Assembly (NCBI GenBank): GCA_963793205.1
Contig: CAWBZM010000003.1
Coordinates: 79,840-143,839 of the forward strand
Reading direction: 5' to 3'
DNA from: an uncultured Gemmatimonadales bacterium
Lineage (GTDB): Bacteria > Gemmatimonadota > Gemmatimonadetes > Gemmatimonadales > GWC2-71-9
DNA: 64,000 nt
Part shown: one piece after another, positions 36,478-61,418 of the stretch
How positions within the stretch are numbered: position 1 is the first letter of the stretch
Layout: the number at the start of each line of letters is the position of its first letter
Translations under genes and position numbers: made by a program
Notes under the pieces: model-generated
Seen by the model: the letters and a program-made list of their open reading frames with translations, nothing else
Told to the model about the DNA's origin: nothing
Databases searched by the model: none

Positions 36478-37227
36478 TCAGGGGGTCTGGCCGATCTCCC
36501 GCAACCGGCCGCGCGCCTCCCCATTCTTCGGATCCCGGCGCAGTGCCTCGCGGTACGCCGTCGCGGCCCCAGTCGTATCGCCGCCGAGCAGCAGGACGTT
36601 GCCGCGCACGATGTACATCCCGGAGGAGCCGGGGTAGAACTCTTCGTTCAGCGTCAGCAGGGCCAGCGCCTCCGCCGGCCGGTGTTCCCGACCCAGCCGC
36701 AGCGCCGCCGCATTCAAGGAGCCTTCGCCGAAATCGTAGGCATCCCGGCCCAGGTACTGCTCCCGCAGGCGGCGGTACGTCCCGACGGCAGAATCGGCAC
36801 CACCCGACATCGCGGCTTCCTGAATCAGCGCGGAGAGCGGGACGGGACGGCTGACCCCGCGGTGACAGGTGCGACAGGTCACCTCCACCGAGGGTGACGG
36901 GCGCTCCGGCAGGGTGTCCAGACGGTGATTGATCTCCTGCACCATCCGCATCATCTGGCGGGCGACCAGCTTGGTCCGTTTGTCATCCTTCGGAAAGTCG
37001 AACTGGTCCAGCGGCTTGCCTTCCTCACCGACATGGCAGAACTGGCACCGCACCCCGAGTCCGCCAGCGAAGTCCCGCATCTGCCCCACGACCTGCATGA
37101 CGGGGGTCGACTTGGGAATGACCTTGGTATTGATGAGGCTGTCGGGAGGAAATTTGCGAACGGTTTGCCCGCTGAGCCCGACAGGGATGGCGAGCACCAG
37201 CAACACCGCGACCAGCTCTCGCGACAT
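36478..37227 (-). CDS. c-type cytochrome (reaction-centre cytochrome c subunit-like fold) with TPR-like C-terminus
   Basis: ORF trimmed to ATG 37227. It has a signal peptide and two heme sites, CQFCH and CRTCH. Confidence 0.8.
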   Translation of the reverse strand: MSRELVAVLLVLAIPVGLSGQTVRKFPPDSLINTKVIPKSTPVMQVVGQMRDFAGGLGVRCQFCHVGEEGKPLDQFDFPKDDKRTKLVARQMMRMVQEINHRLDTLPERPSPSVEVTCRTCHRGVSRPVPLSALIQEAAMSGGADSAVGTYRRLREQYLGRDAYDFGEGSLNAAALRLGREHRPAEALALLTLNEEFYPGSSGMYIVRGNVLLLGGDTTGAATAYREALRRDPKNGEARGRLREIGQTP

Positions 37228-37417
37228 GGGACCTCCTGGATGGATAGGGATAGATCCGCCCATACGTTGGTCAGTGCCGGCAAGTTGCGCCGTTCCCTTT
37301 GCGCCACCATCTACGCCTTGCCAGAACCGGGCAGGCTCCGCACCTTGGAATCAGCCGTTCGCCGCGCCTTCATCGGCTCCTCCGCACTAACCCTATACAA
37401 CTCCATCGGTCGCGTTC

Positions 37418-40057: not shown

Positions 40058-40657
40058 ATGTCTTTGGATATGGCGTCCGACCTGACCCACCGCATCGCCG
40101 GTCGCGTGCAGCGGCTGCGCGCCAGCCAGGGACTCTCGCTGGAGGCGCTGGCGGACCGGAGCGGTGTCAGCCGCTCCATGATCTCCCTGATTGAGCGCGG
40201 TGAGACCAGCCCGACCGCCGTCGTCCTCGAACGCCTCGCCACCGGACTCGGCGTGGTCCTGGCCACCCTGTTCGATGCCCCGGATGCGGACCGGGCACCG
40301 GATCCCCTCTCCCGCCGGACCGACCAGGACTCCTGGACTGATCCCGATTCGGGCTACACCCGGCGGAATATTTCTCCCCCGGGGGCCGGGCAGCCGATGC
40401 AAATCGTCGAGGTCCGGTTCCCGCCCGGACGACGGGTGACGTTCGAGCGGCTGACTCCGGGCCCGGTCGCCTGCCAGCAGGTCTGGGTGTTGAGCGGCAC
40501 CCTCGACATCACCCTCGGCCGCACCCGCACCCGCCTCGCTGAGGGAGACTGCCTCGCCATGCAGCTCGATCGGCCGATCACCTTTCACAATCCTTCACGC
40601 CGCACCACCCGATACTGCGTCGTGATCGCGCCGAGCCCGGCAGGGAAGCGGACATGA
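40058..40657 (+). CDS. XRE-family HTH regulator with C-terminal cupin domain
   Basis: The HTH is LRASQGLSLEALADRSGVSRSMISLIERGETSPT. A cupin tail follows. Confidence 0.9.
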   Translation: MSLDMASDLTHRIAGRVQRLRASQGLSLEALADRSGVSRSMISLIERGETSPTAVVLERLATGLGVVLATLFDAPDADRAPDPLSRRTDQDSWTDPDSGYTRRNISPPGAGQPMQIVEVRFPPGRRVTFERLTPGPVACQQVWVLSGTLDITLGRTRTRLAEGDCLAMQLDRPITFHNPSRRTTRYCVVIAPSPAGKRT

Positions 40658-41178
40658 CCACCATCCTCCCGCCCCGGCGCCTTCGCACCGTCACCGAGGC
40701 CCAGATCGCCCAGCTGGCGGAGGTGCTGATCGATGCGGTGGACGGCGGGGCCTCGGTCAGCTTCATGAGCCCCCTGCCCTTCCCACGGGCGGAGGCCTTC
40801 TGGCGGGGAGTGGCGCAGGCGGTCGCGACCGAAGCGGTGGCCCTGCTGGTGGTGGAGGACGACGCAGGCATATGCGGGACGGTACAGCTGGGGTTGGCCC
40901 AGCCCGACAACCAGCCGCACCGGGCGGACCTGTCCAAAATGCTGGTCCATCGCCGCGTGCGGCGACAGGGAGTGGGAGAGGCGCTGATGCGCGCAGCAGA
41001 GGCGACCGCTCGGGAATGCGGGAAGCGGCTGCTGGTTCTGGATACCGCGAGTGATGTGGCGGAGCGGCTCTATGCCCGCACCGGCTGGACCCGAGTCGGC
41101 GTCATCCCGGATTACGCTCTGCTGCCGGACGGGGCGCCGTGCAGTACTACGATCTTCTACCGCACCCTCACGCCGTAA
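40654..41178 (+). CDS. GNAT family N-acetyltransferase
   Basis: ATG overlaps the upstream stop (ATGA). Contains KMLVHRRVRRQGVGEALM. Confidence 0.85.
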   Translation: MTTILPPRRLRTVTEAQIAQLAEVLIDAVDGGASVSFMSPLPFPRAEAFWRGVAQAVATEAVALLVVEDDAGICGTVQLGLAQPDNQPHRADLSKMLVHRRVRRQGVGEALMRAAEATARECGKRLLVLDTASDVAERLYARTGWTRVGVIPDYALLPDGAPCSTTIFYRTLTP

Positions 41179-41192
41179 CCGTCTCACCGCGC

Positions 41193-41323
41193 GACCGCCC
41201 GACCGCCTGACCGCCCGTCCGGCTACCCACGTACCCTCGTACACCCACGCACCCACGTACCCACGCACCCACGCACCCACGCACCCACGTACCCACGTAC
41301 CCACGTACCCCTACCCACCGTCC
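41193..41323. repeat. tandem octamer array: GACCGCCY x3-4 then ACCCACGY x about 10 plus degenerate ends
   Basis: Read directly: gaccgccc gaccgcct gaccgccc gtccggct acccacgt accctcgt (ac) acccacgc acccacgt acccacgc x3 acccacgt x3 accccta cccaccgtccc. It is intergenic. Confidence 0.9.
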
Positions 41324-41392
41324 CTAACACTAAGCAAATAATGAAAACAGCCTGAAGCTCTCCCCGCCTTGACGCCTACTCCCGGCAGGCCA

Positions 41393-44341
41393 ATGTTGAA
41401 GCGTCTTTCATTGGGCCCGCTTAGCACCCATTCACTTTTCGTTCACGATAGCACTTCCCATGGAGCCTCGCGGGGATCCCCCCCGTCGCCCCCGGACGAT
41501 CCCCCGGTCTCCAGACCGGAGGCCGGCAGACTGCCTCACGTCAGCTCAATATCACCACACGGGATCCTTGTGAGCTCTGGCTCCACCGTGCCTTCCCCTC
41601 CCCCGGAGGGAGCCCTGGCTCCTTCCCTGACCGCCGCGGATCCGCGCGCCCTGCAGCTGACATTTACGGTGTCCGGCTATCTGGCGATGGCGGGGATTGT
41701 CGTGGGTCTGGTGGTGCTGCTGGGCGGGTGGGTGATCGGGATTGAATGGATCAAGGGTCTCCTGCCCGGTATGGCCACCATGAAGCCGGCCACCGCCATT
41801 TGCATTGCGCTGGTCGGTGCCGGCCTCTGGTTGGAACGCCGTGACACGGATCGGGCGCACCGCTGGGCAGCAGGCGTGGGGATCCTGTCGATCGCCGTCT
41901 CGCTGCTCACGGTCTCCGCCTATCTTGTCGACGCTGGCGCCCCCCTGCTGGCGGCCAGGCTCATGCCGCCGCCGCAGCGGATGTCCCTGGCGACCTCCGT
42001 CGGGCTCCTGTTGCTGGGCATCGCGGTGGTGTTGTTGCGCTGGGCCCGGTTCCGCACCCGTCCGGCGGACTTCGTCGCGCTCGGGGCGATCCTGGTCGGG
42101 CTGGTCGGTATCGAAGGCTATCTCTTCGGCACCGTCGGACTGTACCGCTTCCTGCCTTACGGCAGCATGGCCCTGCACACCGCGGCCCTGATCTTCCTGC
42201 TCGGCCTCGGCGTGCTCACTGTCCGGCCGGAGAGGGGCGTCCTGGCGCCGTTCGTCAGCCGCTACGATGGCGGGAAAACGGCACGACTGGTGCTGCCCAC
42301 CGTGGTGACAGCCATCCTGCTGGTGGCGTGGCTGCGGCTGCAGGGGGAACGGGCCGGCTGGTACGGCACCGAGGTGGGGCTCGCCATCTTTTCGTCCGCC
42401 AATATCGTCCTGATCACGACCGTCACCTGGATGGCGGCCAGCCGGGTCAACCGGGCCGACCTGGAGCGGCGCGATGCCGAAGTCCGTGCCCTGGCGGATG
42501 TCGAGCGCCTGCGGCTGCTCTCGGCGGTGGTGGAAAGCTCCGATGATGCGATTCTCACGAAAAGCACCGACGGGACGATCCAATCCTGGAATCGTTCCGC
42601 CGAGCTGCTCTATGGCTATCGCCCGGAGGAGGCGATTGGGCAGAACATTGCCCTCATCGTTCCGGCGGACCGTCGGGCCGAACTCGCCGATCTGATCGGG
42701 CGAGTGCAGCGCGGCGAGTCCGTGCACCACCTGGAGACGGTCCGGCAGACCAGGGACGGGCGGCGGATCGACGTGTCCCTCTCCCTCTCCCCGGTGACCC
42801 TCGGGCCGGGTCGCTCGACCGGAATCGCAGCAATCGCCCGAGATATCACCGACCGGCGACGCCAGGCCGAACGGTTGCAGGCGGTGGTGGAGTCCGCACC
42901 CAACGGCATGATGATGGTGACGGAGGACGGTCGGATCGAACTGGTGAACCGGGCCGCCGAGGTGCTCTTCGGCTATCGCCGGAAGGAAATGCTCGGCCAG
43001 ACGGTGGACATGTTGCTGCCGGAGAAGGCCCGTGCCCGCCATCCCGCCTTTCGCGCCGACTTCGGTCGCGACCCGACGCCGCGCGCGATGGGGGCAGGCC
43101 GGGAACTCTTCGCCCGGCGAAAGGACGGGAGCGAGGTACCGGTTGAAATCGGCCTGAACCCGATCGAGATCGATCAGGCGCGTTACGTCCTCGCCTCGAT
43201 TGTTGATGTGAGCGCACGGAAGCTGGCGGATGAACGGACCCGGCTGGTGGTGGAAGCGAGTCCGAGTGGTCTGGTCGTGGTGGACCCCGCGGGCATCATC
43301 ACCATGGTCAACCAGGAGATGGTACGGATGTTCGACTGGCCGCGGGAGCAGCTGGTCGGCCAGCCGATCGACCGTCTGCTGCCCGAGCAGGCGCGCCCCA
43401 GCCACGATGGGCTGCGGCGGGCCTACATGGAGGCGCCTGGCCGACGGGCCATGGGGGTCGGTCGCGAATTGTTCGGCCGCCGGCGGGATGGCACCGAGTT
43501 CCCGGTGGAGATCGGGCTCAATCCGTTGCGGCAGGGAAATGAGGTCGCGGTGCTGGCCGTCGTCACCGACATCACCGAGCGCCGGGCCGCGGAACAGGCC
43601 CTGGCACGGCATCAGCGGGAACTGGAGCGCTCCAACAAGGAGCTGGCCCATTTCGCTTACGTCGCCTCGCATGATCTGCAGGAACCGCTGCGCATGGTGA
43701 GCAGCTATGCCGAGCTCTTCTCGGAGCGCTACCAGTTCACCCTGGACGAGCGAGGGAGCAAGTATCTGGGATACATGGTGGATGGCGCCCGCCGGATGCA
43801 GGCGCTGGTCCGTGACCTGTTGGCCTATGCCCGGGTGGATTCCCAGGGACGGCCACTCGAGGCCACCGGTGTGGCCAGGGTCCTGACCGCCACGCTGCAC
43901 GACCTGTCGGGCGCCATCACGGAGGCGGAGGGCACAATCGAGCATGGCGAGATGCCCACGGTATGGGCCGATCCCGTACAACTGCAGCAGCTGCTGCAGA
44001 ACCTCATTGGCAATGCCGTGAAGTTCCGCAGCGGCATGCCGCCCAGGGTGCGACTCACGGTGGAGCGGCAGGGCCCCATGCTGGCGTTCGCGGTGAGCGA
44101 CAACGGGATCGGCATCGCGCCGGAGTTTGCCGAGCGGGTCTTCGGCATGTTCCAGCGGCTGCATACCCGGGAGGAATTCGCGGGGAGTGGCATCGGGCTT
44201 TCGATTGCTCGAAAGATCGTGGAGCGCCATGAAGGCCGGATCTGGGTCGACACGACGGTCAATGGCGGCACGACGATTCGCTTCACCTTATGGCCCGCCG
44301 ACGGCCCCCGTCCGCCCGGGACCCCTGGAAGTGCACCATGA
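41393..44341 (+). CDS. membrane sensor histidine kinase: multi-TM N-terminal domain, three PAS domains, HisKA, HATPase_c
   Basis: About eight TM helices. The H-box is FAYVASHDLQEPLRMV and the ATPase motifs are NLIGNAVKF, DNGIGI and GSGIGLS. The start is uncertain (ATG 41393, TTG 41369, GTG 41570). Confidence 0.9.
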   Translation: MLKRLSLGPLSTHSLFVHDSTSHGASRGSPPSPPDDPPVSRPEAGRLPHVSSISPHGILVSSGSTVPSPPPEGALAPSLTAADPRALQLTFTVSGYLAMAGIVVGLVVLLGGWVIGIEWIKGLLPGMATMKPATAICIALVGAGLWLERRDTDRAHRWAAGVGILSIAVSLLTVSAYLVDAGAPLLAARLMPPPQRMSLATSVGLLLLGIAVVLLRWARFRTRPADFVALGAILVGLVGIEGYLFGTVGLYRFLPYGSMALHTAALIFLLGLGVLTVRPERGVLAPFVSRYDGGKTARLVLPTVVTAILLVAWLRLQGERAGWYGTEVGLAIFSSANIVLITTVTWMAASRVNRADLERRDAEVRALADVERLRLLSAVVESSDDAILTKSTDGTIQSWNRSAELLYGYRPEEAIGQNIALIVPADRRAELADLIGRVQRGESVHHLETVRQTRDGRRIDVSLSLSPVTLGPGRSTGIAAIARDITDRRRQAERLQAVVESAPNGMMMVTEDGRIELVNRAAEVLFGYRRKEMLGQTVDMLLPEKARARHPAFRADFGRDPTPRAMGAGRELFARRKDGSEVPVEIGLNPIEIDQARYVLASIVDVSARKLADERTRLVVEASPSGLVVVDPAGIITMVNQEMVRMFDWPREQLVGQPIDRLLPEQARPSHDGLRRAYMEAPGRRAMGVGRELFGRRRDGTEFPVEIGLNPLRQGNEVAVLAVVTDITERRAAEQALARHQRELERSNKELAHFAYVASHDLQEPLRMVSSYAELFSERYQFTLDERGSKYLGYMVDGARRMQALVRDLLAYARVDSQGRPLEATGVARVLTATLHDLSGAITEAEGTIEHGEMPTVWADPVQLQQLLQNLIGNAVKFRSGMPPRVRLTVERQGPMLAFAVSDNGIGIAPEFAERVFGMFQRLHTREEFAGSGIGLSIARKIVERHEGRIWVDTTVNGGTTIRFTLWPADGPRPPGTPGSAP

Positions 44342-47942: not shown

Positions 47943-47992
47943 CGCCCCGCCGGCGGTCCCGCTTGTCCCATCGCCGGTCCCCCGGCACCTTT

Positions 47993-48017
47993 CCCCCCCG
48001 TTAGTCCCGCCCCCCCC
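47993..48017. repeat. two homopolymeric C tracts (C7 at 47993-47999, C8 at 48010-48017) in an intergenic region
   Basis: Read directly: tttcccccccgttagtcccgcccccccctcttgcacg. It lies 23-47 nt upstream of ATG 48040. Confidence 0.85.
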
Positions 48018-48039
48018 TCTTGCACGACCTGAGGAAGCC

Positions 48040-48369
48040 ATGCGTCTGGCCGAGATTCCCTTTGGTACCACTGCCTGGTCCGAGATGCCGCCCACCGAGC
48101 ATCCCGGGGAGTGCGGCCACGCCACGTGGCGCACCCGCGAGTTCGGCGGGGTCCGCGTCCGCATGGTGGAGTATTCGCCGGGCTATCGCGCCAACCACTG
48201 GTGTACCAAAGGACATATCCTGCTGTGCCTCGACGGCGAGTTGCACACCGAGCTGGCGGATGGGCGACAGTTCGTCCTGACTCCCGGGACCAGCTATCAG
48301 GTGGCCGATGACGCCGAGCCCCATCGATCCTCGACCAGCACCGGCGCACGCCTGTTTATCGTGGACTGA
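48040..48369 (+). CDS. cupin fold protein (DHCW-motif type)
   Basis: GAGGAAG lies before ATG 48040. Contains VRMVEYSPGYRANHWCTKGHILLCLDGEL. Confidence 0.8.
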   Translation: MRLAEIPFGTTAWSEMPPTEHPGECGHATWRTREFGGVRVRMVEYSPGYRANHWCTKGHILLCLDGELHTELADGRQFVLTPGTSYQVADDAEPHRSSTSTGARLFIVD

Positions 48370-49051: not shown

Positions 49052-52000
49052 CTAGCGGCCCGCCGATCCGCGACTCATTACCAGGTCCACAATCCCCGCC
49101 AGCGGCACGCTCACCCAGTCGGGCCGGTTGCCCAGTTCGTAGGCCAGCTCGTACAGCGCCTTGTCCAGCACATAGGCATCGAGCAGCTCTCGCCGCGCCG
49201 CGGGGTCGGTCGGCACCAGCGCGGACCCTGCAACGGTACGGAGGTAGGAATCGAGGAACACGGTCGAGGTCGAGGCATCCCACAACCGGGCCCAGGGATC
49301 GAGCCGCACCAGATCGCCCGCACCGCGGGCCGCATTGTCCTGCAGGGCAAATCGTGCCGCGTAACTGAAGGACCGGAGCATCCCCGCGACATCCTTGAGC
49401 GGTGAATGCTTCGCGCGCCGCTCCGCCAGGCTCCGGGCGGGTTCGCCCTCGAAATCGAGGATCACAAAATCCGAACCGACCCGCAGCACCTGGCCAAGGT
49501 GGTAATCGCCGTGGATGCGGGTCTTGACGCCGTCGGTGGTGAGGCCCCCCAGCCGAGTCAGCCGGGCCAGGATCTGAGTCCGGCAACTCATCACCCGACT
49601 CGCCAGCTCCACGACATCGTTGGGGAGGCGTGGGAGCGCCATCTTGAGCTGCTCGAAGGCATAGGCCGCGTGCTCCCGCACACCCAGGGCGAGCCCGTCG
49701 ATATCGGCGGCAGTCAGCGGTTCCGGAGCGAGCGCGGGATCCGGGATCGGTTCGGCCAATGCGAGATGCAGCGCACCGGTGCGCCGGCCCAGCACCGCGG
49801 CTGCCTCCCACGAGACCGCGAGCAAATCCTCGACCTCCTTGGAGAGTGGCCGACCGCGGTCCAGGCTGCCATCCGGGCCCAGCGCCGGTGTGAGTTCGGC
49901 GGGAAGGGTCATGGTCCGTTCGTAGTAGCGACCCAGCTCGGCGACTATCCAGCTCCAGCCATCGCCCTGGTTCGGAACGAATCGCTGCACCAGGGCCAGC
50001 GCGGCGGGCGCCACACCTGGCTGGGCATACTCGAGGCACCCCGCAAAGGCCGGCACACCGGGGAAGTGCCGTTCAGTGGTGAGATACCGGGTCAGTTCGG
50101 CATCGGGGTTGGGACCGTACTCGATGCGACGGAACAGCTTGAGGATGAACTGGCCGCCGAAGATGATCGAGCTGTTGCTCTGCTCGCCACCGATGCGGGT
50201 CACGCTCAAGTCGGCCAGCTGGTCCTTCGCGTCCGCCAGCGGCGCGGCCGGGAGGCCGGTCACCGTGCCCAGCGTCCCCGCCTGAGTGGCGGCCTGTCCA
50301 GCGAACAGCAGCAGCGTGCGACAGAACTCGTCGGAGACCAGCGCATCGTGCAGGACACCGGGGGTCCCCCCGACGGTGAGGTTGCCGATGATCGCTGCCG
50401 GCCGCTCCTCCCGCATGCGGGTGGCGGCCCCGCCCAGGGTGATCGCAACGGTCACCACGTATCGCTCGCTGGCCCCTTCCTTATACTGTAGCGCGAGTAC
50501 CAGCAGCCCGGCGTCCGGGGCAATCCGGATCGTATCCTCGATCTGGCAGGAGACGATTACCCGGGCTTTACCGCCGTACCAGCGCTGGCGGGTGAGGAAT
50601 TCGGGTAGAAAGCGCGACTCGAGCACCCGCCGCGGGTTCCCCTGCAGCAAGCCGGCGAGGGGATCCCCGGCCGCCACGACCAGGGCCGGCTCCTCGACCG
50701 CCGGGCTGGCCGGCTCCTCCCGGTTCTGCAGCTCCAGCCAGAGGAAGCCGTACGGCCCGAGCGTCAGGGGATAGGGGGTCTTACCGATGCGGGGGAACTC
50801 CACATAGCCGCGCATCTCCACCGGCGTCATTCCCGCCAGCTCGGCGAGATCCAGCTCGAACGGCTGGGCGAACCGCGACAGGTTGGCGACGCACAGCACC
50901 GTCTCGCCTTCATAACGGCGCAGGTATGCCAGGATCTTGCGATTGTTCGGCGCGAAGAACTCGATGGTGCCCCGCCCGAAGACGTGGAACAGCTTCCGGA
51001 TCGCAATCATGTGCCGGATCCAGTTGAGCAGGCTGGACGGCTCGCTCTGCCGTGCCTCCACATTCACCGATTCGTAACCGTACACCGGGTCCATCACCAC
51101 CGGGCTGTACAGTCGCGCCGGATTCGCCCGGGAGAACCCGGCGTTGCGGTCGCCGCTCCACTGCATCGGCGTGCGGACCCCGTGCCGGTCGCCAAGATAG
51201 ATATTGTCCCCCATCCCGATTTCGTCACCGTAGTACAGCACCGGTGTCCCGGGGAACGACAGCAGGATGCTGTGCAGCAGCTCGATCCGGTCCCGGTCGT
51301 TCTCCAGCAGCGGCGCCAGTCGCCGACGGATGCCGACATTCACCCGCATGCGCGGATCGGCGCTGTAGGCGAAGTACATGTAATCCCGTTCTTCATCGGT
51401 GACCATCTCCAGCGTCAGCTCGTCGTGGTTGCGCAGGAAGAGGCCCCACTGACAGCTGTCGGGAATGGCCGGGGTCTGCCGCATGATTTCGGTGACCGGA
51501 TGGCGATCTTCCAGCCGGAGCGCCATGAACAACCTCGGCATCAGCGGGAAGTGGAACGCCATCTGGCATTCGTCCTCGTCCCCGAAATAGGCTCGCACAT
51601 CCGATGGCCATTGATTGGCCTCGGCCAGCAGCAGGCGCCCGCTGTACCCCTCGTCCATGGCCGCCCGGAGGCGTTTGATCAGATGGTGGGTCTCCGGCAG
51701 GTTTTCGTTGTTGGTCCCTTCCCGTTCGATCAGGTAGGGAATGGCATCCAGTCGGAGGGCATCGACGCCGAGGTCGAGCCAGAACCGCATGACCTTGATG
51801 ACCTCCTGTTCAACCACCGGATTGTCGAAGTTGAGGTCCGGCTGGTGGGAGAAGAACCGGTGCCAGTAGTACGCCTTCGCTTCCGGGTCCCAGGTCCAGT
51901 TCGAGGTGTGGGTGTCGGTGAAGATGACCCGGGTGCCAGCGTACTTCTGATCAGTCTCGCTCCAGACGTAGAAGTCCCGCTCCGGTGAACCGGGCGGCGC

Positions 52001-52372
52001 GTGGCGTGCGGCCTGAAACCAGGGATGCTGATCCGAGGTGTGATTGATGATCAGTTCGATCAGGACCTGCATCCCGCGGTCGTGCGCTGCCGCGAGAAAC
52101 TCGGTGAAGTCCTCCATGGTCCCGTAGCTGGGATGCACGCTGGTATAGTCGGCGATATCGTAGCCGTCATCCCGCAGGGGCGAGGGGAAGAAGGGCAGCA
52201 CCCACAGACAGGTGACCCCCAGTTCCTGCAGGTAGTCGAGCTTCTGGATCAGTCCGCGAAAGTCGCCAATCCCATCACCGTTGGCGTCATGGAAGCAGCG
52301 GACGTGGACTTCATAGATGATGGCGTCCTTGTACCAGAGCGGATCGGACGCGCTGCCAGGCTGTTGACTCAC
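49052..52372 (-). CDS. treS: trehalose synthase fused to maltokinase (TreS-Pep2/Mak)
   Basis: The N-terminus is [26 protein letters not shown] ... RLDAIPYL ... [11 protein letters not shown]. The C-terminus is [23 protein letters not shown] 52372 follows GGAGG and overlaps the treY stop (GTGA). Confidence 0.9.
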
Positions 52373-55285
52373 ATCACCTCCATCGTGGGGATCTTCCCCG
52401 TGGATGCCATCGCCGCGCTCGCATAGAGCCCCCACGGCAGGGTTCGGAGTGCGTCCGCCGCGGCGAGGTGGCCATCCACCGGGATCACGGTCTCTCCTGT
52501 CAGTCGGTTGCCCCAGGCGACACGGGCCAGATCGGGGGGCAGCACGATCCGGGTCTCCTGCCACGCGGCGCTTCCGAGCGGGGGATCCTCTCCATGGGTC
52601 CACCCGCAAAGTCGGGCGGGCCGGCGCGGAACCATCGCGAGCACCGTCGCCGGACCCTCCCCACGCGCCACGGCGATCAGGTGTGAGGCGCCGGCGCCGG
52701 TAACCTCGAGCGGACGGTAGGCGCCCGCCAGCAAGATCTCGGGCTGCGCCCGACGGAGTCGCAGGGCCGCCGCCGTCACCAGCAGCTTGATGTCACCGGT
52801 GCGCCACCCCCGTAACAGCCGCACGCAGCGCCCGGCGGACTCCGGTGCCGGCTCGTCCAGAAGCAGACCGCGCAGCCCCGCGAGACGCTCCTGCCGTTCG
52901 CTGAAGTCTACCGGACGGCGGTTGTCGGGATCGACCAGGCTCAGGTCCCACAGCTCGCTTCCCTGATAGATATCGGGCACCCCGGGTGAGATCACCTTCA
53001 GGAGGAGCTGCGACACCGAGTTGAGCATCCCCAGCCACGCGACCCGGCTGGCCACCGGGAGGAACGAACGCAGGAATTCGGCGGCGGGCGATCCGAGGAG
53101 CAAATCCGCCACAAACTGATCCACCGCCGATTCATACGCCGCGTCCGGATTGAGCCAGCTGGTGTGCTGCTTCGCTTCGCGCGTGGCCTTCCGCATATAG
53201 CCCTGCAGCCGGGCCACCAGCGCCTCGTCCGGGACCGCCGTCTCCGCCATGGGCCAGGCCGCTACCAGCGCCTGATAGAATCGATATTCGTCTTCCGGAG
53301 CGGGCGCGGTCCCATCCGCCAGCTCCGTGCGCGCGGCCCGGGCAGTGCGGTGCCAGCGCGCGACCAGCGCCTGCCATTGTCGCGGCACCTCGGAGAGGAC
53401 TGCCAGGCGGGCGCGGGCGTCCTCGCCCCATTTGGTATCGTGCGTTCCGGTGGCCAGCATGGTCAAGGGCGAGTGGGCCAGTCGGGCCTGGTTCGCCGCG
53501 TGGAACGCTGCCACCGGATCGCCGTGGACCGCGGGCTCGCCCCCGACCTCATTGAGCGACGCCAGCGGCGCATACCGATAGAAGGCGGTGTCCTCCACTC
53601 CCTTCGCCTGGACCGGCGCGGTGTACTGCTGGAATTTGAGGGCAAACCGCACCCGTCGATCGTGGGTATCCCTCTCGTCCGCCGAGGCGGGTGGCGGCAG
53701 CAGCATCTCGCGGATGAATCCGAAGATGGTGGGCTCCAGCGCCGGGTTCCGCCGCAGCGCTTCGGCGATCACCCGATCCACCATCGCCGCGTCCGCCGCC
53801 GTCCATCCATCGGTGCGCACATAGGTGCGGTACGCCGGGAAACAGGCGACAACTTCCTCCAGCGCCTCCTGCAGACTGTCGAGGGTGAAGTCCCGGCACC
53901 GCCGGTCCCGTTCCGACATGCGGTTGAGCGCCGCCGCCAGCACGTTGAGCTCCGCCGCCATCGACGTTGCGATGATGGTCTTCTTGCTGGCGTACGCCAC
54001 CTCGTCGAACGGGTCATCCCGTCCGGTGAAGCGGGTGTAGAACCGGCTCAGCGCCTCGACCCCGGGAGGATCCACCAGCACCGTGTTCACCTGGTTCAGG
54101 AAGTCGTATCCGGTGGTTCCGTGCACCGGCCAGGCGGGGCTCAACCGCTCACCCGGGGCGAGAATCTTCTCGACCACCGTCCACACCGGACCGCGCGGCG
54201 CACACAGCTCGGCCAGATGGGTGAGATACGTTCCCGGCTCGAAGAGACCATCCACATGGTCCAGCCGGATCCCGGTCACGATGCCCTCCTCGACCAGCCG
54301 GGCCAGCAGCCGGTGACTGGCCTCGAACACCACCGGCTCCTCCTGCCGGATCCCCGCAAGGTCGTTCACATCGAAGAAGCGCCGGTAGTTGATCTCGTGC
54401 ATCGCGGTGCGCCACGAGGCGAGCCGATACGGCTGCGCCTCCAGCAGCTGGTGCAACCGATCAAACGAGGCCGGATTCCCCGGTGTCCCGTTGAAGCGGG
54501 CCACACTCGTGGGCATACTCGGCGCTCACCGCGGTGGAGCGCGCCAGCAGTGCCTGGAGTCGACCGAGCGCCACCTCTTTTTCCCGCCCGCGCTCCGCCA
54601 TCTCGACCGGCGCGGTCGAGGTGTAGACCGGAAGATGCTCCAGGTGAAAGACCACACTCTGCAGCTCGATCAGATCGGCGTCGTCGGCCGGAAGCCGGGT
54701 CTGCAGCCCTTCAAGGGCCAGCGCCAGCACCAGGCGGAGCTGACGGGGATTGAGCGGCAGGTCCCGTTCGTAGTACCGCAGCGTCAGGCCGGCCGCATCG
54801 AGCACCAGCCGGAGCTGTCCGTCCTCGAGGGTGACTCCATACTGGTCACCGAGGATCGGCAGCAGCAGCCGTCCCTTGAGCTCCGGCTTGACCGGATCCC
54901 AGTCGATATCGAAGCAGGTCGCGTAGGGGGACGACGGACCATTCTCCAGCATGCTGCGCCACCAGGGGTTCGCCGCCGAATCGGCCGCCATATGATTCGG
55001 CACGAAATCCACCAGCAGACCGATCCCGTGGGCCCGTACCGACTCGGCCAGCACCGCGAACCCCTCGGCGCCACCCAGTTCGGGGTTCAGCTGCTGGTGA
55101 TCGCAGACATCGTAGCCGTGGGGGCTGCCCGGACGGGCGGTGAGAATGGGGGAGCAGTAGAGCTCGGTGATGCCGAGCTCGGCGAGGTAGGGGACCAGGC
55201 GGGCCGCCTGGGGGAAATCAAAATCCCGGTTGAGCTGGATGCGGTAACTGCTGAGCGGGCGGCGCGCCGGCGGAGCGGTCGCCAT
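52369..55285 (-). pseudogene. treY: maltooligosyl trehalose synthase TreY, split by an apparent +1 frameshift between 54464 and 54516
   Basis: The N-part is ORF 54461..55285 (SSYRIQLNRDFDF...VDFVPNHMA). The C-part is ORF 52369..54516 (VARFNGTPGNPASFDRLHQLLEAQPYRLASWR...). The two frames overlap, and removing one base (for example in the CCC at 54511-54513) fuses them. Confidence 0.8.
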
Positions 55286-55287
55286 CG

Positions 55288-57166
55288 TCAGCCCAGTCCG
55301 CCATCAAGGCTGAAGAGCACGGCACCCGGTTCGCCAAACGCGACCATCGGTCCGGCGGGGTCCACGGTGGTGATGGACCCCGGCATCGGCGTACGCGGCA
55401 TCCGCGGTGGACAGCAGGAGGCGCCACTGGGCGCCGGCGGGATGTCGCGCCAGGTCGTGGCCGCGCAAGGCCACCGGTCCCGATCCACGTAGACGGACGA
55501 CAGCCAGCAAGGCCACCGGTCCTGCCTCGCGCCGCAGCAGGAGGACGTCGTCGGAGAAGGCGGCGACGGCGAGGCCAGTCCCCGGTCCCCGGAGGGCGGG
55601 GTGCTGCCGCCGGAGTTCGAGCAGGCGCTGATACAGGGCGAGGACCTGCCGGTGCGGAGCCTGGTCCCGCTCGCCCCATGGGAGCCGACTGGAAGTGAAG
55701 GTTGTCGGCGCCTGGGGATCGGGAATCCGCTCCCGCGCGGCGGGATCACTGAAGGCCGCGAAGCGCGCGAACTCCTGCCGCCGTCCCCGCCGGACCATCT
55801 CACCCAGGTCGGCGTGATGGTCGGTGAAATAGAGCCACGGAGTGGAGGCCGCCCATTCCTGACCCATGAACAGCAGGGGCGTCTCCGGGAGGCAGAGCAA
55901 CAGGGCGGATGCGGCACGGTACGCTGCCGCGGTGATCTGGTGGTGCAACCGTTCCCCGAGGGCGCGGTTGCCGATCTGATCGTGATTCTGCAGGCAACAG
56001 ACAAACCGTGACAGCGGAACCCCGGCAGGATCACTCCCGCGCGGTGCACCGGCGTACCCAGACTGCTGTCCGTGGTAATACCACCCTTGCCGGATGGTCT
56101 CGGCGAGGTCGGCGGTTGACCCGGAATAGTCCTGGAAGTAGCCGTCCCGATCTCCGGCCAGCGCCCGCCGCATCTGGTGGTGAAAATCATCGGACCAGAC
56201 ACCATCGAGCCCCATCCCTCCCGCACTCACCGGTCGGACCAGCGCCGACAGGTTCCGGCCATCCTCCGCAATGACAAGGACCGTCCGATCCTCGGCCGCA
56301 GCGAGGCGATGCACCGCCTCGGCGATCTCCGTCAGGATATGGACCGGGCTATCGTCGATGATTGCGTGGGTCGCGTCGAGACGGAGCCCATCGAGGTGAT
56401 ACTCGCGAACCCAGGTGAGTGCGCTCTGAATCACCAGTGCCCGGACCGGCCCGCTGTCGGGACCGTCGAAGTTGAGCGCGGCGCCCCACGGCGTGCGGTG
56501 CGTGGTGGAGAAGTAGGCCGACGCAAAGGCGCCCTGATACGCGCCATCGGGGCCAAAATGGTTGTAGACCACATCGAGGTGCACCGCGAGACCGAGCCCG
56601 TGTGCGGCATCCACCAGGGCCCGCAGATCCTCGGGGCGGCCGTACGCACGGGCCGGCGCGTTGAGCGCCACGCCATCGTAGCCCCAGTTGCGCTCGCCCG
56701 GAAAATCCCCCACCGGCATCAGCTCAATCGCCGTGACGCCCAGGGCGACCAGGTCGGGCAGCCGCTCAATCGCCGCGCGGAACGTCCCCTCCGGCGTGAA
56801 GCTCCCGATGTGCAGCTCGTACAGGACGAGGCGATCGAGCGGGACACCACTCCAGGCGCTGTCGGTCCAGCGAAAGGCGGGATCGATGACTTCCGACGGC
56901 CCGTGCACTCCGCGGATCTGGCAGCGCGATGCCGGATCGGGAAAGGGCCCGCGACCATCGAGGTAGAAGCTGTACCGCGTCCCGGGCGGGGCCGAGGGGT
57001 GCAGCAGCTCGAACCAGCCGTCGCCCACGGCGACCATCGTGGTCCGGATCCCGCGAATGTGCGGGTCGAGCACCACCTCGACCTGGGTAGAGCCGGGTGC
57101 CCAGACCCGGAACCGGGTCCCGTCAGCTCCCAGCCAGGTGGCGCCGATCGGCGCTGGTGCGGTCAC
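55288..57166 (-). pseudogene. treZ: malto-oligosyltrehalose trehalohydrolase TreZ; the last ~30 codons switch frame at a G4 run (55378-55381)
   Basis: Contains GATWLGADGTRFRVWAP ... YELHIGSFT ... DVVYNHFGP ... RLDATHAI. The expected end SITTVDPAGPMVAFGEPGAVLFSL is in the next frame (stop 55288). GTG 57166 overlaps the glgB stop (GTGA). Confidence 0.8.
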
Positions 57167-59070
57167 GCGGTCCCTCCCCGGGGCGCCCGGAAGGCCACGA
57201 CCGCGAGCGGCGGCAGCGTCAGTGTGAGCGACCATGGACGTCCATGCACCTGCGCTGGGGCCGCCTCGACCCCGCCGAGGTTGCCCTGTCCACTGCCCCC
57301 GTAGAGGGGAGCATCGCTGTTGAGAATCTCGGTCCAGTACCCGCCGCCGGGCACCCCGACCCGATAGTCGGTGCGCAACACCGGGGTGAAATTGCAGACG
57401 AACAGGATAACGTCCTCCGGATCACGGGCGCGGCGCAGGAAACTGACCACGCTACGCAGGTTATCGTTGCAGTCGACCCACTCGAATCCTGCCGCCTCGA
57501 AATCCACCTGGTGCATCGCGGGTTCCGCCCGGTAGCAGGTGTTGAGATCACGGACCCAGCGCTGCAGGCCCTTGTGCTCCGGCTCGCTCGAGCAGGTGCC
57601 AGTCGAGACTGGACTCATGGTTCCATTCCCGCACCTGGCCGAACTCCCCGCCCATGAAGAGCAGCTTCTTGCCCGGATGGCCGAACATGAACCCATAGAG
57701 GGCACGCAGGTTGGCAAACTGCTGCCACCGGTCGCCCGGCATCCGGCCGAGCATCGATCCCTTGCCGTGCACCACTTCGTCGTGCGAAAACGGCAGCACA
57801 AAATTCTCACTGAACGCATACAGCAGCGAGAAGGTGATCAGCGCCTGATGGTGTACGCGATAGACCGGATCCTTCGCCATGTAGTCCAGCATGTCGTGCA
57901 TCCAGCCCATGTTCCACTTGAAGCCGAAACCGAGGCCACCCAGGTAGGTAGGTCGCGAGACCATGGGCCAGCTGGTGGATTCCTCGGCGATGACGGTGGC
58001 ACCGGGGTACTCCTGATGCAACTGTTCGTTGAGCACTCGGAGGAAGTCGACCGCCTCGAGATTCTCCCGGCCACCGAAACGGTTGGGAATCCACTCCCCT
58101 TCCTTGCGGCCGTAGTCGAGATACAGCATCGAGGCCACGGCATCGACCCGGAGGGCATCGATATGATACCGGTCCAGCCAGAACATGGCGTTGCTCAGCA
58201 GGAAACTGCGTACCTCCATCCGGCCGAAGTTGAAGACGAAGGTATCCCAGTCGGGGTGGAGGCCCTGCCGCGGATCGGCGTGCTCGTAGAGGTGGGTACC
58301 GTCGAAGTAGGCCAGGCCGAGTTCGTCGCGCGGGAAGTGGGCGGGAACCCAGTCGAGAATCACCCCGATCCCGCGCTGGTGGCAGGCATCCACCAGATAC
58401 ATCAGGTCTTCCGGATCTCCGTAGCGCGACGTGGGGGCAAAATAGCCGGTGACCTGATAGCCCCACGAGCCGTAGAACGGATGCTCCGCCAGCGGCAGCA
58501 GTTCGACGTGGGTGAAGCCCTGCTCTGCCACGTAATCCACCAACTGGACGGCCGCCTCGCGATAGGTGAGCGATCGGTTGCCCGCCTCCGGCACCCGGCG
58601 CCACGAGCCGAGGTGAACCTCATAAATGGAAAGCGGCGCCTGATGGATCTGACCGGCCTGGCGCGCCGCGATCCACGCCTGGTCCTGCCACTGGTAGGTG
58701 GGCGGTGCGAGCACCCGTGATGCCGTCAGCGGTGGCACCTCGGTGGCAAAGGCGTAGGGATCGGCCTTGTCGGCTGAAAAGCTTCCGTCGCGCGACACGA
58801 CCCGGAACTTGTAGCGGGCGCCGGGCTGGACACCGGGGATGAAGCATTGCCAGATGCCATAGTCAGTGGGCGACATCGGGTGGCGCGCGGGATCCCAGCC
58901 ATTGAATTCCCCGATGACCGACACCCGGCTGGCATTGGGTGCGACCACTGCGAAGCGGACCCCGGGGCCCTGGGGGCCGGAGACCGGATGCGCACCGAGA
59001 ATACGATAGGCCCGACAGGCCGAGGGGTGGCTCACCTCGGCGAGCTCCTCGGGCCGTAATGCGATGGTCA

Positions 59071-59074
<4 letters not shown>
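57163..59074 (-). pseudogene. glgB: 1,4-alpha-glucan branching enzyme GlgB, split by an apparent +1 frameshift near 57575-57595
   Basis: The body is in ORF 57548..59206 ([11 protein letters not shown] ... [13 protein letters not shown] ... AEESTSWP). The C-terminus [30 protein letters not shown]... is in ORF 57163..57819. ATG 59074 overlaps the glgX stop (ATGA). Confidence 0.8.
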
Positions 59075-61212
<2,138 letters not shown>

Positions 61213-61326
61213 CGGTGCCTCAAGGTGAACGCAGCCCGGCCAGCGGGCGAAGAGTGCGATAGCATGGACGCATACCCGCGGCGTCCGACGCAAACTATCC
61301 CGGCATTCTCCCGCGTAACAGGGTAG

Positions 61327-61380
61327 GATGTGAAGCGACACACGTGTAAGATGTGAAGGGATGGGTGACGCGAGCGCGTC
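61327..61380. promoter_or_regulatory. candidate operator region in the glgX / glycosyltransferase-like divergent intergenic
   Basis: Direct repeat GATGTGAAG at 61327-61335 and 61350-61358 (23-bp phase). It flanks the perfect palindrome ACACGTGT (61340-61347). The inverted repeat GACGCG-ag-CGCGTC follows at 61367-61380. Confidence 0.35.
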
Positions 61381-61418
61381 GCCGAGACGTCCCACTTCCA
61401 ACGAACCCGGAGTCCTGG

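Follow-up and report, generated by a model that had tools for sequence, protein, structure and literature searches.

The tandem octamer array at positions 41193-41323 of the window (the whole stretch of DNA that was analyzed, 64,000 nucleotides in length) was real but imperfect. It was very probably a compound imperfect octanucleotide slippage repeat of the long simple-sequence repeat (LSSR) or VNTR kind, located in non-coding DNA. As far as the letters of the DNA can tell, the array more likely matters as C-rich, unstructured RNA than as a G-quadruplex (G4) switch. The explanation that we tentatively prefer, which as a whole statement is possible rather than probable, is that this slippage-generated non-coding octamer repeat may act as a rut-like Rho-loading insulator. 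An earlier sequence-only reading of the same DNA had described the array as a possible phase- or structure-dependent switch in front of a sensor-kinase operon.

Structure and Composition of the Octamer Array

The repeat structure was evaluated via Tandem Repeats Finder (TRF), and the array was resolved into two blocks as follows.

41186-41221, + strand: array block 1, (ACCGCCCG)x4.5 (TRF period 8, 85% matches, score 51)
41224-41323, + strand: array block 2, (TACCCACG)x11.9 (TRF 41224-41318, period 8, score 123)

The 4.5 and 11.9 copies confirmed the earlier count of about 16 octamer units. Block 2 (41224-41318) had 85% matches and 7% indels, and its score of 123 was the best of any tandem repeat in the 64-kb window, with the runner-up at 73. 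The octamer register was shown by a repeat search, in which a single 10-nt step resulted from an extra AC at 41240-41241. When block 2 was written in this register, it consisted of ACCCACGT, ACCCTCGT, the inserted AC, and ACCCACG units that were followed by C, T, C, C, C, T, T and T in turn. The last unit decayed over 41306-41323 (ACCCCTACCCACCGTCCC). The C/T variants at the eighth position were grouped in blocks, and ACCCTCGT was the one other variant. The number of C3+ tracts in 41193-41325 was 15, all of which were C3 except one C4.

The abundance of the unit was compared with that in shuffled sequences. ACCCACGY occurred 14 times in the 64-kb window versus 6.4 ± 2.6 times in the shuffles, and none of the 100 shuffles reached 14. 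Nine of the 14 copies fell inside the array. The five copies outside it were single octamers and matched the chance expectation, and the idea of a dispersed octamer family, which had been raised for the genome at large, found no backing within the window. LSSRs and VNTRs are recognized by a head-to-tail unit of 1-11 nt and by a length beyond chance, both of which were present in the array. The blocks of C/T variants and the decayed edge indicated stepwise duplication together with point mutation, and we infer that the array originated by replication slippage.

The array was non-coding, as had been claimed, and the open reading frames (ORFs) that cross it were mere translations of the repeat. 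These ORFs were open because the unit has no stop codon in any of the six frames. A coding repeat was considered and rejected, since no frame-specific GC3 was found across the array and an 8-nt unit cannot hold a reading frame. A stable hairpin or cruciform in the array was also rejected because neither strand folded better than its shuffles.

Genomic Context of the Array

The array was located between a probable acetyltransferase operon and a sensor-kinase gene. The features of this region are listed below.

40058-40657, + strand: HTH (XRE-type) and cupin regulator gene (Pfam HTH_3 7e-14, Cupin_2 1e-4)
40654-41178, + strand: GNAT acetyltransferase gene (Pfam Acetyltransf_1 7e-12)
41179-41614, + strand: non-coding spacer from the GNAT stop to the probable kinase start, C-rich on the sense strand throughout
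41325-41349, no strand assigned: AT-rich 25-mer TAACACTAAGCAAATAATGAAAACA, 76% AT, abutting the 3' end of the array
41605-41626, + strand: hairpin GGAGGGAGC-CCTG-GCTCCTTCC (5-bp core in the hairpin scan; 9-bp stem in the MFE and centroid folds)
41615-44341, + strand: membrane sensor histidine kinase gene (N-terminal membrane domain, three PAS domains, HisKA and HATPase_c by Pfam)

The HTH-cupin regulator gene overlapped the GNAT start by 4 nt, and hence the two genes probably form one operon. The GNAT protein was 100% identical to one database entry (P0001), and the next relative was 77% identical. The HTH-GNAT pair was kept at loci L001 and L118. The gene downstream of it differed in L001, L118 and L119, in other words, the junction was not conserved. 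The position of the GNAT stop at 41178 was supported by the Pfam match to the ORF that ends there. The array had been placed 15 nt past this stop, which needed correction, since the first degenerate unit lay only 8 nt past it.

The spacer had a length of approximately 430-500 nt, of which the array occupied the first third, and its GC skew ranged from -0.25 to -0.65. No Rfam family, tRNA or tmRNA was found at the spacer or the array. Furthermore, neither a sigma-70 consensus promoter nor an intrinsic terminator was found in 40600-42000. The only strong promoter-like feature was the AT-rich 25-mer at 41325-41349. No other 25-mer in the 64 kb had as high an AT content, which bore out the earlier remark that the patch at the end of the array was unusual. 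This 25-mer is a candidate DNA-melting or -10 region, with AATAAT at 41337-41342. The AT-rich junction of the array had no match in the metagenome scan.

The kinase gene was followed by GGDEF-EAL, response-regulator and hybrid-kinase genes according to Pfam. The kinase ORF had been listed as starting with TTG at 41369, but the true start is almost certainly elsewhere. The homologues P0121 and P0123, from the only N-terminal matches that were detected, aligned only from ORF residue 78-87, which corresponded to their own residue 2, and the frame-specific GC3 for the kinase began only at approximately 41609-41669. Both observations made TTG 41369 not credible. Judged from these two signals, the start is probably near 41615-41687, for which CTG 41615, GTG 41669 and ATG 41687 are the candidates. 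The nearest relative of the kinase N-terminus had 35% identity. With the coding start probably past 41369, the array would be approximately 290-370 nt upstream of the kinase CDS. Thus, the array was indeed upstream of the sensor kinase, but not "just" upstream as the sequence-only reading had it. In the hairpin at 41605-41626, the Shine-Dalgarno-like GGAGGGAG (41605-41612) paired with CTCCTTCC in the 9-bp stem, and the in-frame CTG (41615) was located in the loop.

G-Quadruplex and i-Motif Potential

The minus strand of block 2 read (RCGTGGGT)n, that is, G3N5. The oligonucleotide unit of this G-rich strand is ACGTGGGT. The minus strand carried a continuous G3N1-7 motif at 41226-41324 (99 nt), whose 13 tracts were separated mostly by 5-nt loops, and the earlier statement that ten or more GGG tracts with 5-nt spacing follow the G3N1-7 rule was correct. 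It was the longest of the 18 G3N1-7 motifs in the window, the remainder of which were 39 nt or shorter. The mean G4Hunter value was -1.28 over 41224-41318. The negative sign denotes the G-rich minus strand, and the thresholds of 1.2 and 1.5 are loose and stringent, respectively. An average of 1.5 was reached only at the 3' end of the array (41284-41334). An absolute value of 1.2 was reached by 2.4% of the 25-nt windows in this 67% GC window, and a stronger tract (-1.8) was found at 47971-48034. The array was exceptional in the length of its G4 motif, not in its G4Hunter score.

The G-rich strand was the template strand of both flanking genes, and therefore no G4 is possible in the mRNA. The minus strand gained little from the G-quadruplex option of ViennaRNA, with an energy of -52.5 without it and -55.0 with it. 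Moreover, 5-nt loops weaken G3 quadruplexes. The G4 potential claimed for the array thus stood as far as the motif rule was concerned, but it was unexceptional in score and absent from the mRNA. An i-motif at neutral or physiological pH needs long C tracts of approximately five or more. The C3 tracts of the plus strand, with their single C4, are too short for this structure at neutral pH, and the proposed plus-strand i-motif was not upheld.

In GC-rich bacteria, the G4PromFinder method regards a site as promoter-like if it combines an AT-rich element with a G4 motif that lies no more than 50 bp upstream of it, whichever strand carries the motif (PMC5801747). This layout was present at the array, where the 76% AT element at 41325-41349 was preceded by 11 overlapping C-strand motifs. 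In the control of that study, the F1 value was 0.61 versus 0.535 with random motifs, which represents a small gain from the G4 term (PMC5801747). The rule was unspecific here because 27% of the 25-mers in the window passed its AT threshold of 40%.

RNA-Level Properties of the Sense Strand

The base composition and folding of the sense strand set the array apart from the rest of the window. The sense strand at 41242-41319 contained 46 C and 8 G, which gave a C/G ratio of 5.75. This value was the maximum of all 78-nt windows on both strands of the 64 kb, for which the 99.9th percentile was 3.2. The next-best place in the window had a ratio of 3.9, and the 78-nt windows with a ratio greater than 1.5 spanned 41110-41407. 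C exceeded G on the sense strand in 18 of the 21 co-directional intergenic gaps of the window. The plus-strand RNA of the array had a folding energy of -20.6 kcal/mol per 140 nt, whereas the 140-nt segments of the window had a median of -55.3, with their 5-95% range running from -69 to -42. Of the 914 segments, the array was the least structured, and the adjacent one at 41301-41440 was the second. The folding z-score of the array RNA relative to its shuffles was +0.36. Furthermore, the array contained a chain of seven C residues spaced 11-13 nt apart and 40 YC dimers. A GGN8YG pause consensus was found at 41384, within 150 nt downstream of the array, and GC-rich hairpins occurred only at 41471-41485 and 41504-41519, at least 150 nt downstream, which is a point against the Rho model.

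The rut criteria were taken from RhoTermPredict (PMC6407284), whose rules are of low specificity; under these rules, the array offered a C-rich, G-poor stretch of RNA of 70-80 nt or more, in which the C residues were regularly spaced and which was unstructured and ribosome-free. The array looks like a Rho loading site because its sense RNA was the most C-rich, G-poor and least structured in the 64 kb. The RhoTermPredict rules derive from E. coli, Salmonella and Bacillus (PMC6407284). In GC-rich Mycobacterium, Rho-dependent termination has been reported to be dominant, and canonical hairpin/U-tract terminators are scarce. According to a mycobacterial review, the RNA preferences of Mtb Rho differ from those of E. 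coli Rho, and hence the rut rules derived from E. coli may not transfer.

The preferred mechanism assumes transcription across the array, loading of Rho and a kinase promoter beyond the array, all three of which we infer. The tract begins where ribosomes leave the GNAT message. Read-through transcription from GNAT would therefore expose approximately 140 nt of C-rich, G-poor, unstructured and ribosome-free RNA, which would be extended by approximately 100 nt of further C-rich spacer. Rho would load on the C-rich RNA of the array. The array would then serve as a rut-like insulator, in that the upstream transcript would be ended before the kinase promoter region that putatively starts at 41325-41349. 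Drift in copy number would gradually lengthen or shorten the Rho-loading platform without an on/off flip.

Octamer Arrays in Other Genomes

The distribution of the octamer was explored by a scan for three perfect ACCCACGY units in 185,579 genomes, with one genome per species. (ACCCACGY)n was found at at least 114 intergenic sites with unrelated flanks in other genomes, which agreed in part with the alternative offered in the sequence-only reading, namely a common neutral intergenic microsatellite across the source genome. The matches listed were mostly from Streptomyces, Micromonospora, Actinoplanes, Nocardia and other Actinomycetota, and they also included Gemmatimonadota, Acidobacteriota, Proteobacteria and others; the source genome was absent among them. 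In the matches listed, the arrays had 3-17 units and were intergenic or in an open stretch just 5' of a gene start. In several of those listed, a ribosome-binding site and start codon followed the array after 10-40 nt, and many arrays directly preceded a ribosome-binding site within likely operons. A terminator would be harmful at such places inside operons, which speaks against the Rho model. Several of the assemblies listed carried the octamer at two or more unrelated loci. Viral contigs gave only two matches to the octamer motif, and the array sequence was not found in the published literature that was searched. With approximately 8,000 octamer necklaces and 185,579 genomes, some 100 matches for one octamer are not remarkable alone.

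The arrays arose independently, since their flanks were unrelated. A shared mobile element was rejected for the same reason; the flanks were unrelated in all cases except one orthologous Micromonospora pair and one repeat-rich Bacteroidales MAG. The two Micromonospora species had an orthologous array with flanks that were 94% and 85% identical, and an 18-nt indel was located at its edge.

The orientation of the arrays relative to the neighbouring genes was counted among the matches listed. The counts are approximate, as genes were called by a crude GC1 > GC2 < GC3 rule and no motif-matched control was included. Among the matches listed, the 5'-side gene was on the C-rich strand in 46 cases versus 23 (p = 0.008), and the C-rich strand was sense in 24 co-directional contexts versus antisense in 8 (p = 0.007). 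The 3'-side gene had no significant bias (39 versus 28 among the matches listed). The listed arrays occupied 15 convergent gaps and 10 divergent gaps. The orientation bias was moderate and could just as well reflect selection against G-rich mRNA. A broader proposal, which is speculative and unlikely to hold as stated, is that (ACCCACGY)n and related octamers are recurrent, convergent, sense-oriented and length-tunable Rho-loading or insulator spacers, or unstructured leaders, in GC-rich bacteria. The corollary is just as doubtful: slippage would tune heritable read-through into the next gene, in this case the sensor-kinase/c-di-GMP cluster. The counts behind an orientation-biased class of Rho spacers were small and uncontrolled.

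Alternative Explanations

A neutral repeat was nearly as likely as the Rho-loading model, and it is a possibility to be taken seriously. The array would in that case be a neutral slippage product in a dispensable spacer at a synteny breakpoint, held in the least harmful orientation and with no effect on its neighbours. The imperfect match of 85%, the non-conserved junction with its different downstream genes, the 18-nt indel between the Micromonospora arrays and the occurrence at no fewer than 114 unrelated sites without shared flanks are all consistent with neutrality, as is the lack of an Rfam match and of a promoter or terminator consensus at the locus. A neutral repeat also accounts equally well for every DNA-level observation, which is a further point against the Rho model. 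The 46:23 and 24:8 biases among the matches listed are unexpected under neutrality, though counter-selection of the G-rich orientation suffices to produce them. The RNA properties of the array, which were extreme for the window, are harder to reconcile with the absence of any effect, because an interaction with Rho or an RNase would be hard to avoid if the array is transcribed. The explanation that transcription of the kinase is modulated by G4 folding of the G-rich template strand just ahead of the kinase promoter, with the copy number setting the number of G4 units, is unlikely. It draws on the 13-tract G3N5 motif, which was the longest in the window, and on the AT-richest 25-mer directly behind that motif, in the layout used by G4PromFinder. 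These points are offset by the moderate G4Hunter score of 1.28, the small contribution of the G4 term in G4PromFinder, the lax AT threshold, the small energy shift in ViennaRNA, the 5-nt loops and the lack of a -35/-10 consensus in 40600-42000. Moreover, the listed arrays in other genomes were not commoner in divergent than in convergent gaps.

A phase-variable contingency locus, in which gain or loss of 8-nt units toggles the kinase operon through promoter or leader geometry, is very improbable. Slippage does act on tandem short units, and a change of one unit would rotate an upstream site because 8 bp does not make up a whole number of helical turns. In addition, repeats in the 5' UTR modulate expression in known cases such as the AGAT tract of UspA2, according to PMC4679880. 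The array was nevertheless interrupted and heterogeneous (85% matches and 7% indels), which would lower the slippage rate, and it was outside the CDS and not between -35 and -10. Only the GNAT 3' end is upstream of it. Contingency loci cluster in host-adapted pathogens, and the organism instead appears to be a GC-rich bacterium of the soil type. The proposed change of promoter spacing by slippage did not hold up either: since the tract is periodic and abuts the AT-rich element, the spacing beside this element would be unchanged by gain or loss of units. Such changes would affect nothing but how many G tracts there are and how far away the GNAT 3' end lies. The phase switch put forward in the sequence-only reading thus found no supporting evidence. 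Long-range pairing, in which the C-rich array masks translation initiation in read-through transcripts by binding the G-rich kinase start at 41701-41750, has the least credibility of the four. When 5098 windows of 50 nt from both strands were compared as partners of the array, this segment ranked first at -57.1 kcal/mol. Its sequence includes CGTGGGT, which complements the unit core exactly. Mononucleotide-shuffled arrays equalled this energy (-46 to -61 kcal/mol), and the G-richness of the target came from Gly, Val and Trp codons for a transmembrane helix conserved among the homologues. Since shuffled arrays paired equally well, the match is compositional, and specific pairing with the kinase start was rejected on this ground.

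Comparison with Known Systems

LSSRs and VNTRs are the closest known kind for the array. LSSRs in prokaryotes were described by Mrazek et al. 2007, as related in PMC4679880 and PMC11868660. According to these accounts, they have units of 5-11 nt that are arranged head to tail beyond the chance length, they are non-coding if their unit length is not divisible by three, and they are scattered phylogenetically and abundant in, among others, Actinobacteria, Burkholderia and Xanthomonas. The array shared all of these traits, and indels between orthologous LSSR loci have their counterpart in the Micromonospora pair. The present array differed in that it was an interrupted compound of two octamer motifs. 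The array resembled rut sites (PMC6407284) in its stretch of at least 78 nt with C > G (5.75), its spaced C residues, its unstructured and untranslated RNA, its location directly past a stop codon and the pause consensus within 150 nt downstream. Natural rut sites are not tandem repeats, and the role of Rho at the array is predicted.

The promoters sought by G4PromFinder (PMC5801747) were similar in having an antisense G4 motif no more than 50 bp upstream of an AT-rich 25-mer. They differed in that the G4 tract of the array was 99-138 nt versus 30 nt or less, and the predictor is of low specificity. The TAACTGA heptamer arrays of Beggiatoaceae, cyanobacteria and Bacteroidetes (PMC4679880) also have one unit at many unrelated intergenic sites in several phyla, an orientation bias to the neighbouring genes and, in several genomes, two or more loci with the unit. 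They differ from the array in unit, base composition and taxa. Furthermore, the TAACTGA sets have 2-6 copies and number hundreds per genome, whereas one array was found here in 64 kb of the source genome. Contingency loci such as the poly-G tract of UspA1 and the AGAT tract of UspA2, as cited in PMC4679880, likewise place a short-unit tract in non-coding DNA upstream of a gene. The array is unlike them in being interrupted, far from the coding start, not between -35 and -10, and in an organism that does not appear to be a host-adapted pathogen. Classical contingency loci are pure tracts, whereas in the array C and T variants are mixed, an AC is inserted and the 3' end has decayed.

If the array is only a VNTR, then it may be useful as a typing marker for the lineage, and it is a warning that ordinary repeats are picked up when GC-rich genomes are scanned for G4 motifs. 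If the RNA-level explanation is true, then slippage repeats could be a means by which Rho-dependent insulation of neighbouring transcription units is created or tuned in GC-rich bacteria, which have few canonical terminators. The orientation bias among the matches listed (46:23 and 24:8) is a small but testable lead. Another C-rich tract was observed in the window behind the hybrid-kinase stop, at 47943-48040.

Sequence Elements Downstream of the Array

The repeat array immediately adjoined an AT-rich patch, and the elements located 3' of the array were as follows.

41325-41349, AT-rich 25-mer TAACACTAAGCAAATAATGAAAACA, 76% AT
41341-41355, mini-ORF ATGAAAACAGCCTGA, 4 codons, following the 25-mer
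41605-41626, hairpin GGAGGGAGC-CCTG-GCTCCTTCC, containing a strong Shine-Dalgarno-like sequence
41722-41740, sense strand, G3N1-7 motif within the stretch that encodes the kinase's first transmembrane helix

The AT content of the 25-mer was the highest of any 25-mer in the whole 64-kb window, and AATAAT was located within it at 41337-41342. This segment is a candidate promoter-melting region for either strand.

The listed start of the kinase ORF (41369) was approximately 80-100 codons too early. The Shine-Dalgarno-like sequence was locked in the hairpin at the point where the kinase homologues start, and an in-frame CTG (41615) was positioned in the loop. The hairpin could exert translational control on the kinase. 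Alternatively, the true start of the kinase may be GTG 41669 or ATG 41687. The first transmembrane helix was encoded by 41680-41757, which was the most G-rich stretch of the plus strand, with a G/C of 3.9 in 78 nt. Of all segments in the window, this stretch formed the strongest predicted duplex with the array; specific pairing between them was rejected because shuffled arrays paired equally well, which indicated that the match was compositional.

C-rich sequence also occurred in other intergenic gaps of the window. C exceeded G on the sense strand in 18 of the 21 co-directional gaps, and the G4Hunter extreme of the window (-1.8, at 47971-48034) was located inside a second tract.

47943-48040, C-rich, G-poor intergenic tract directly after the hybrid-kinase stop codon, ahead of the RBS and ATG at 48041

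Gene Neighbourhood of the Array

The HTH-cupin/GNAT pair (40058-41178) was kept in distant relatives (loci L001, L118, and L119). The gene after GNAT differed at each of them, namely, a second GNAT, a short-chain dehydrogenase, and, on the opposite strand, an unknown protein. Hence, the array was located at a synteny breakpoint. No relative with more than 35% identity was found for the N-terminal sensor domain of the kinase. Other genes in the window included the following.

36478-37263, CytoC_RC-like cytochrome ORF
49052-61401, minus strand, alpha-glucan and trehalose gene cluster, with a TreS-maltokinase fusion (minus strand, 1185 aa; Alpha-amylase, Malt_amylase_C, and Mak_N_cap) and GlgB-like, isoamylase-like, and further alpha-amylase-family ORFs

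Octamer Arrays in Other Genomes

Several assemblies carried one octamer array at two unrelated loci among the matches listed: L057/L061 (Streptomyces sp. I6), L055/L098 (S. zagrosensis), L056/L082, L080/L094, L043/L084, and L015/L087. Such pairs would not be expected from a random draw of array motifs. One Bacteroidales MAG had nine array loci among the matches listed, some with related flanks, and may contain a repeat-carrying element. The Metamycoplasmataceae MAG CBDHHR01 (L017, L028, L033, L046, and L078) carried (ACCCACGY)n satellites that reached the kilobase scale, with as many as approximately 200 units; since such satellites are implausible in a mycoplasma genome, these contigs probably entered the bin as host or eukaryotic contaminants.

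Inverted adjacent arrays, (GCGTGGGT)n then (ACCCACGY)n, were present in Acidobacteriota, Thermoanaerobaculia, Bacteroidota, and Prevotellaceae MAGs (L079 5530-5653, L084 1281-1379, L008 5379-5454, L099 6093-6228, and L112 4323-4434), and would form long perfect hairpins. The actinomycete arrays and that of the window, in contrast, had one orientation only. In Gemmatimonadota/Longimicrobium (L056, L080, L082, L091, and L094), the ACCCACGC arrays were bordered by other arrays built from related octamers (ACTCACGC, CGCACTAA, CCGCACTC, and CGTACTTT), which suggests an octamer family with a CGCAC-like core that mutates and then re-expands.

Orthologous arrays in two Micromonospora species (L048 2500-2760 and L069 2126-2394) differed by an 18-nt indel. 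Shortly downstream of both, a 10-bp inverted repeat, GATCTTGCAC...GTGCAAGATC, was conserved around approximately 50 nt.
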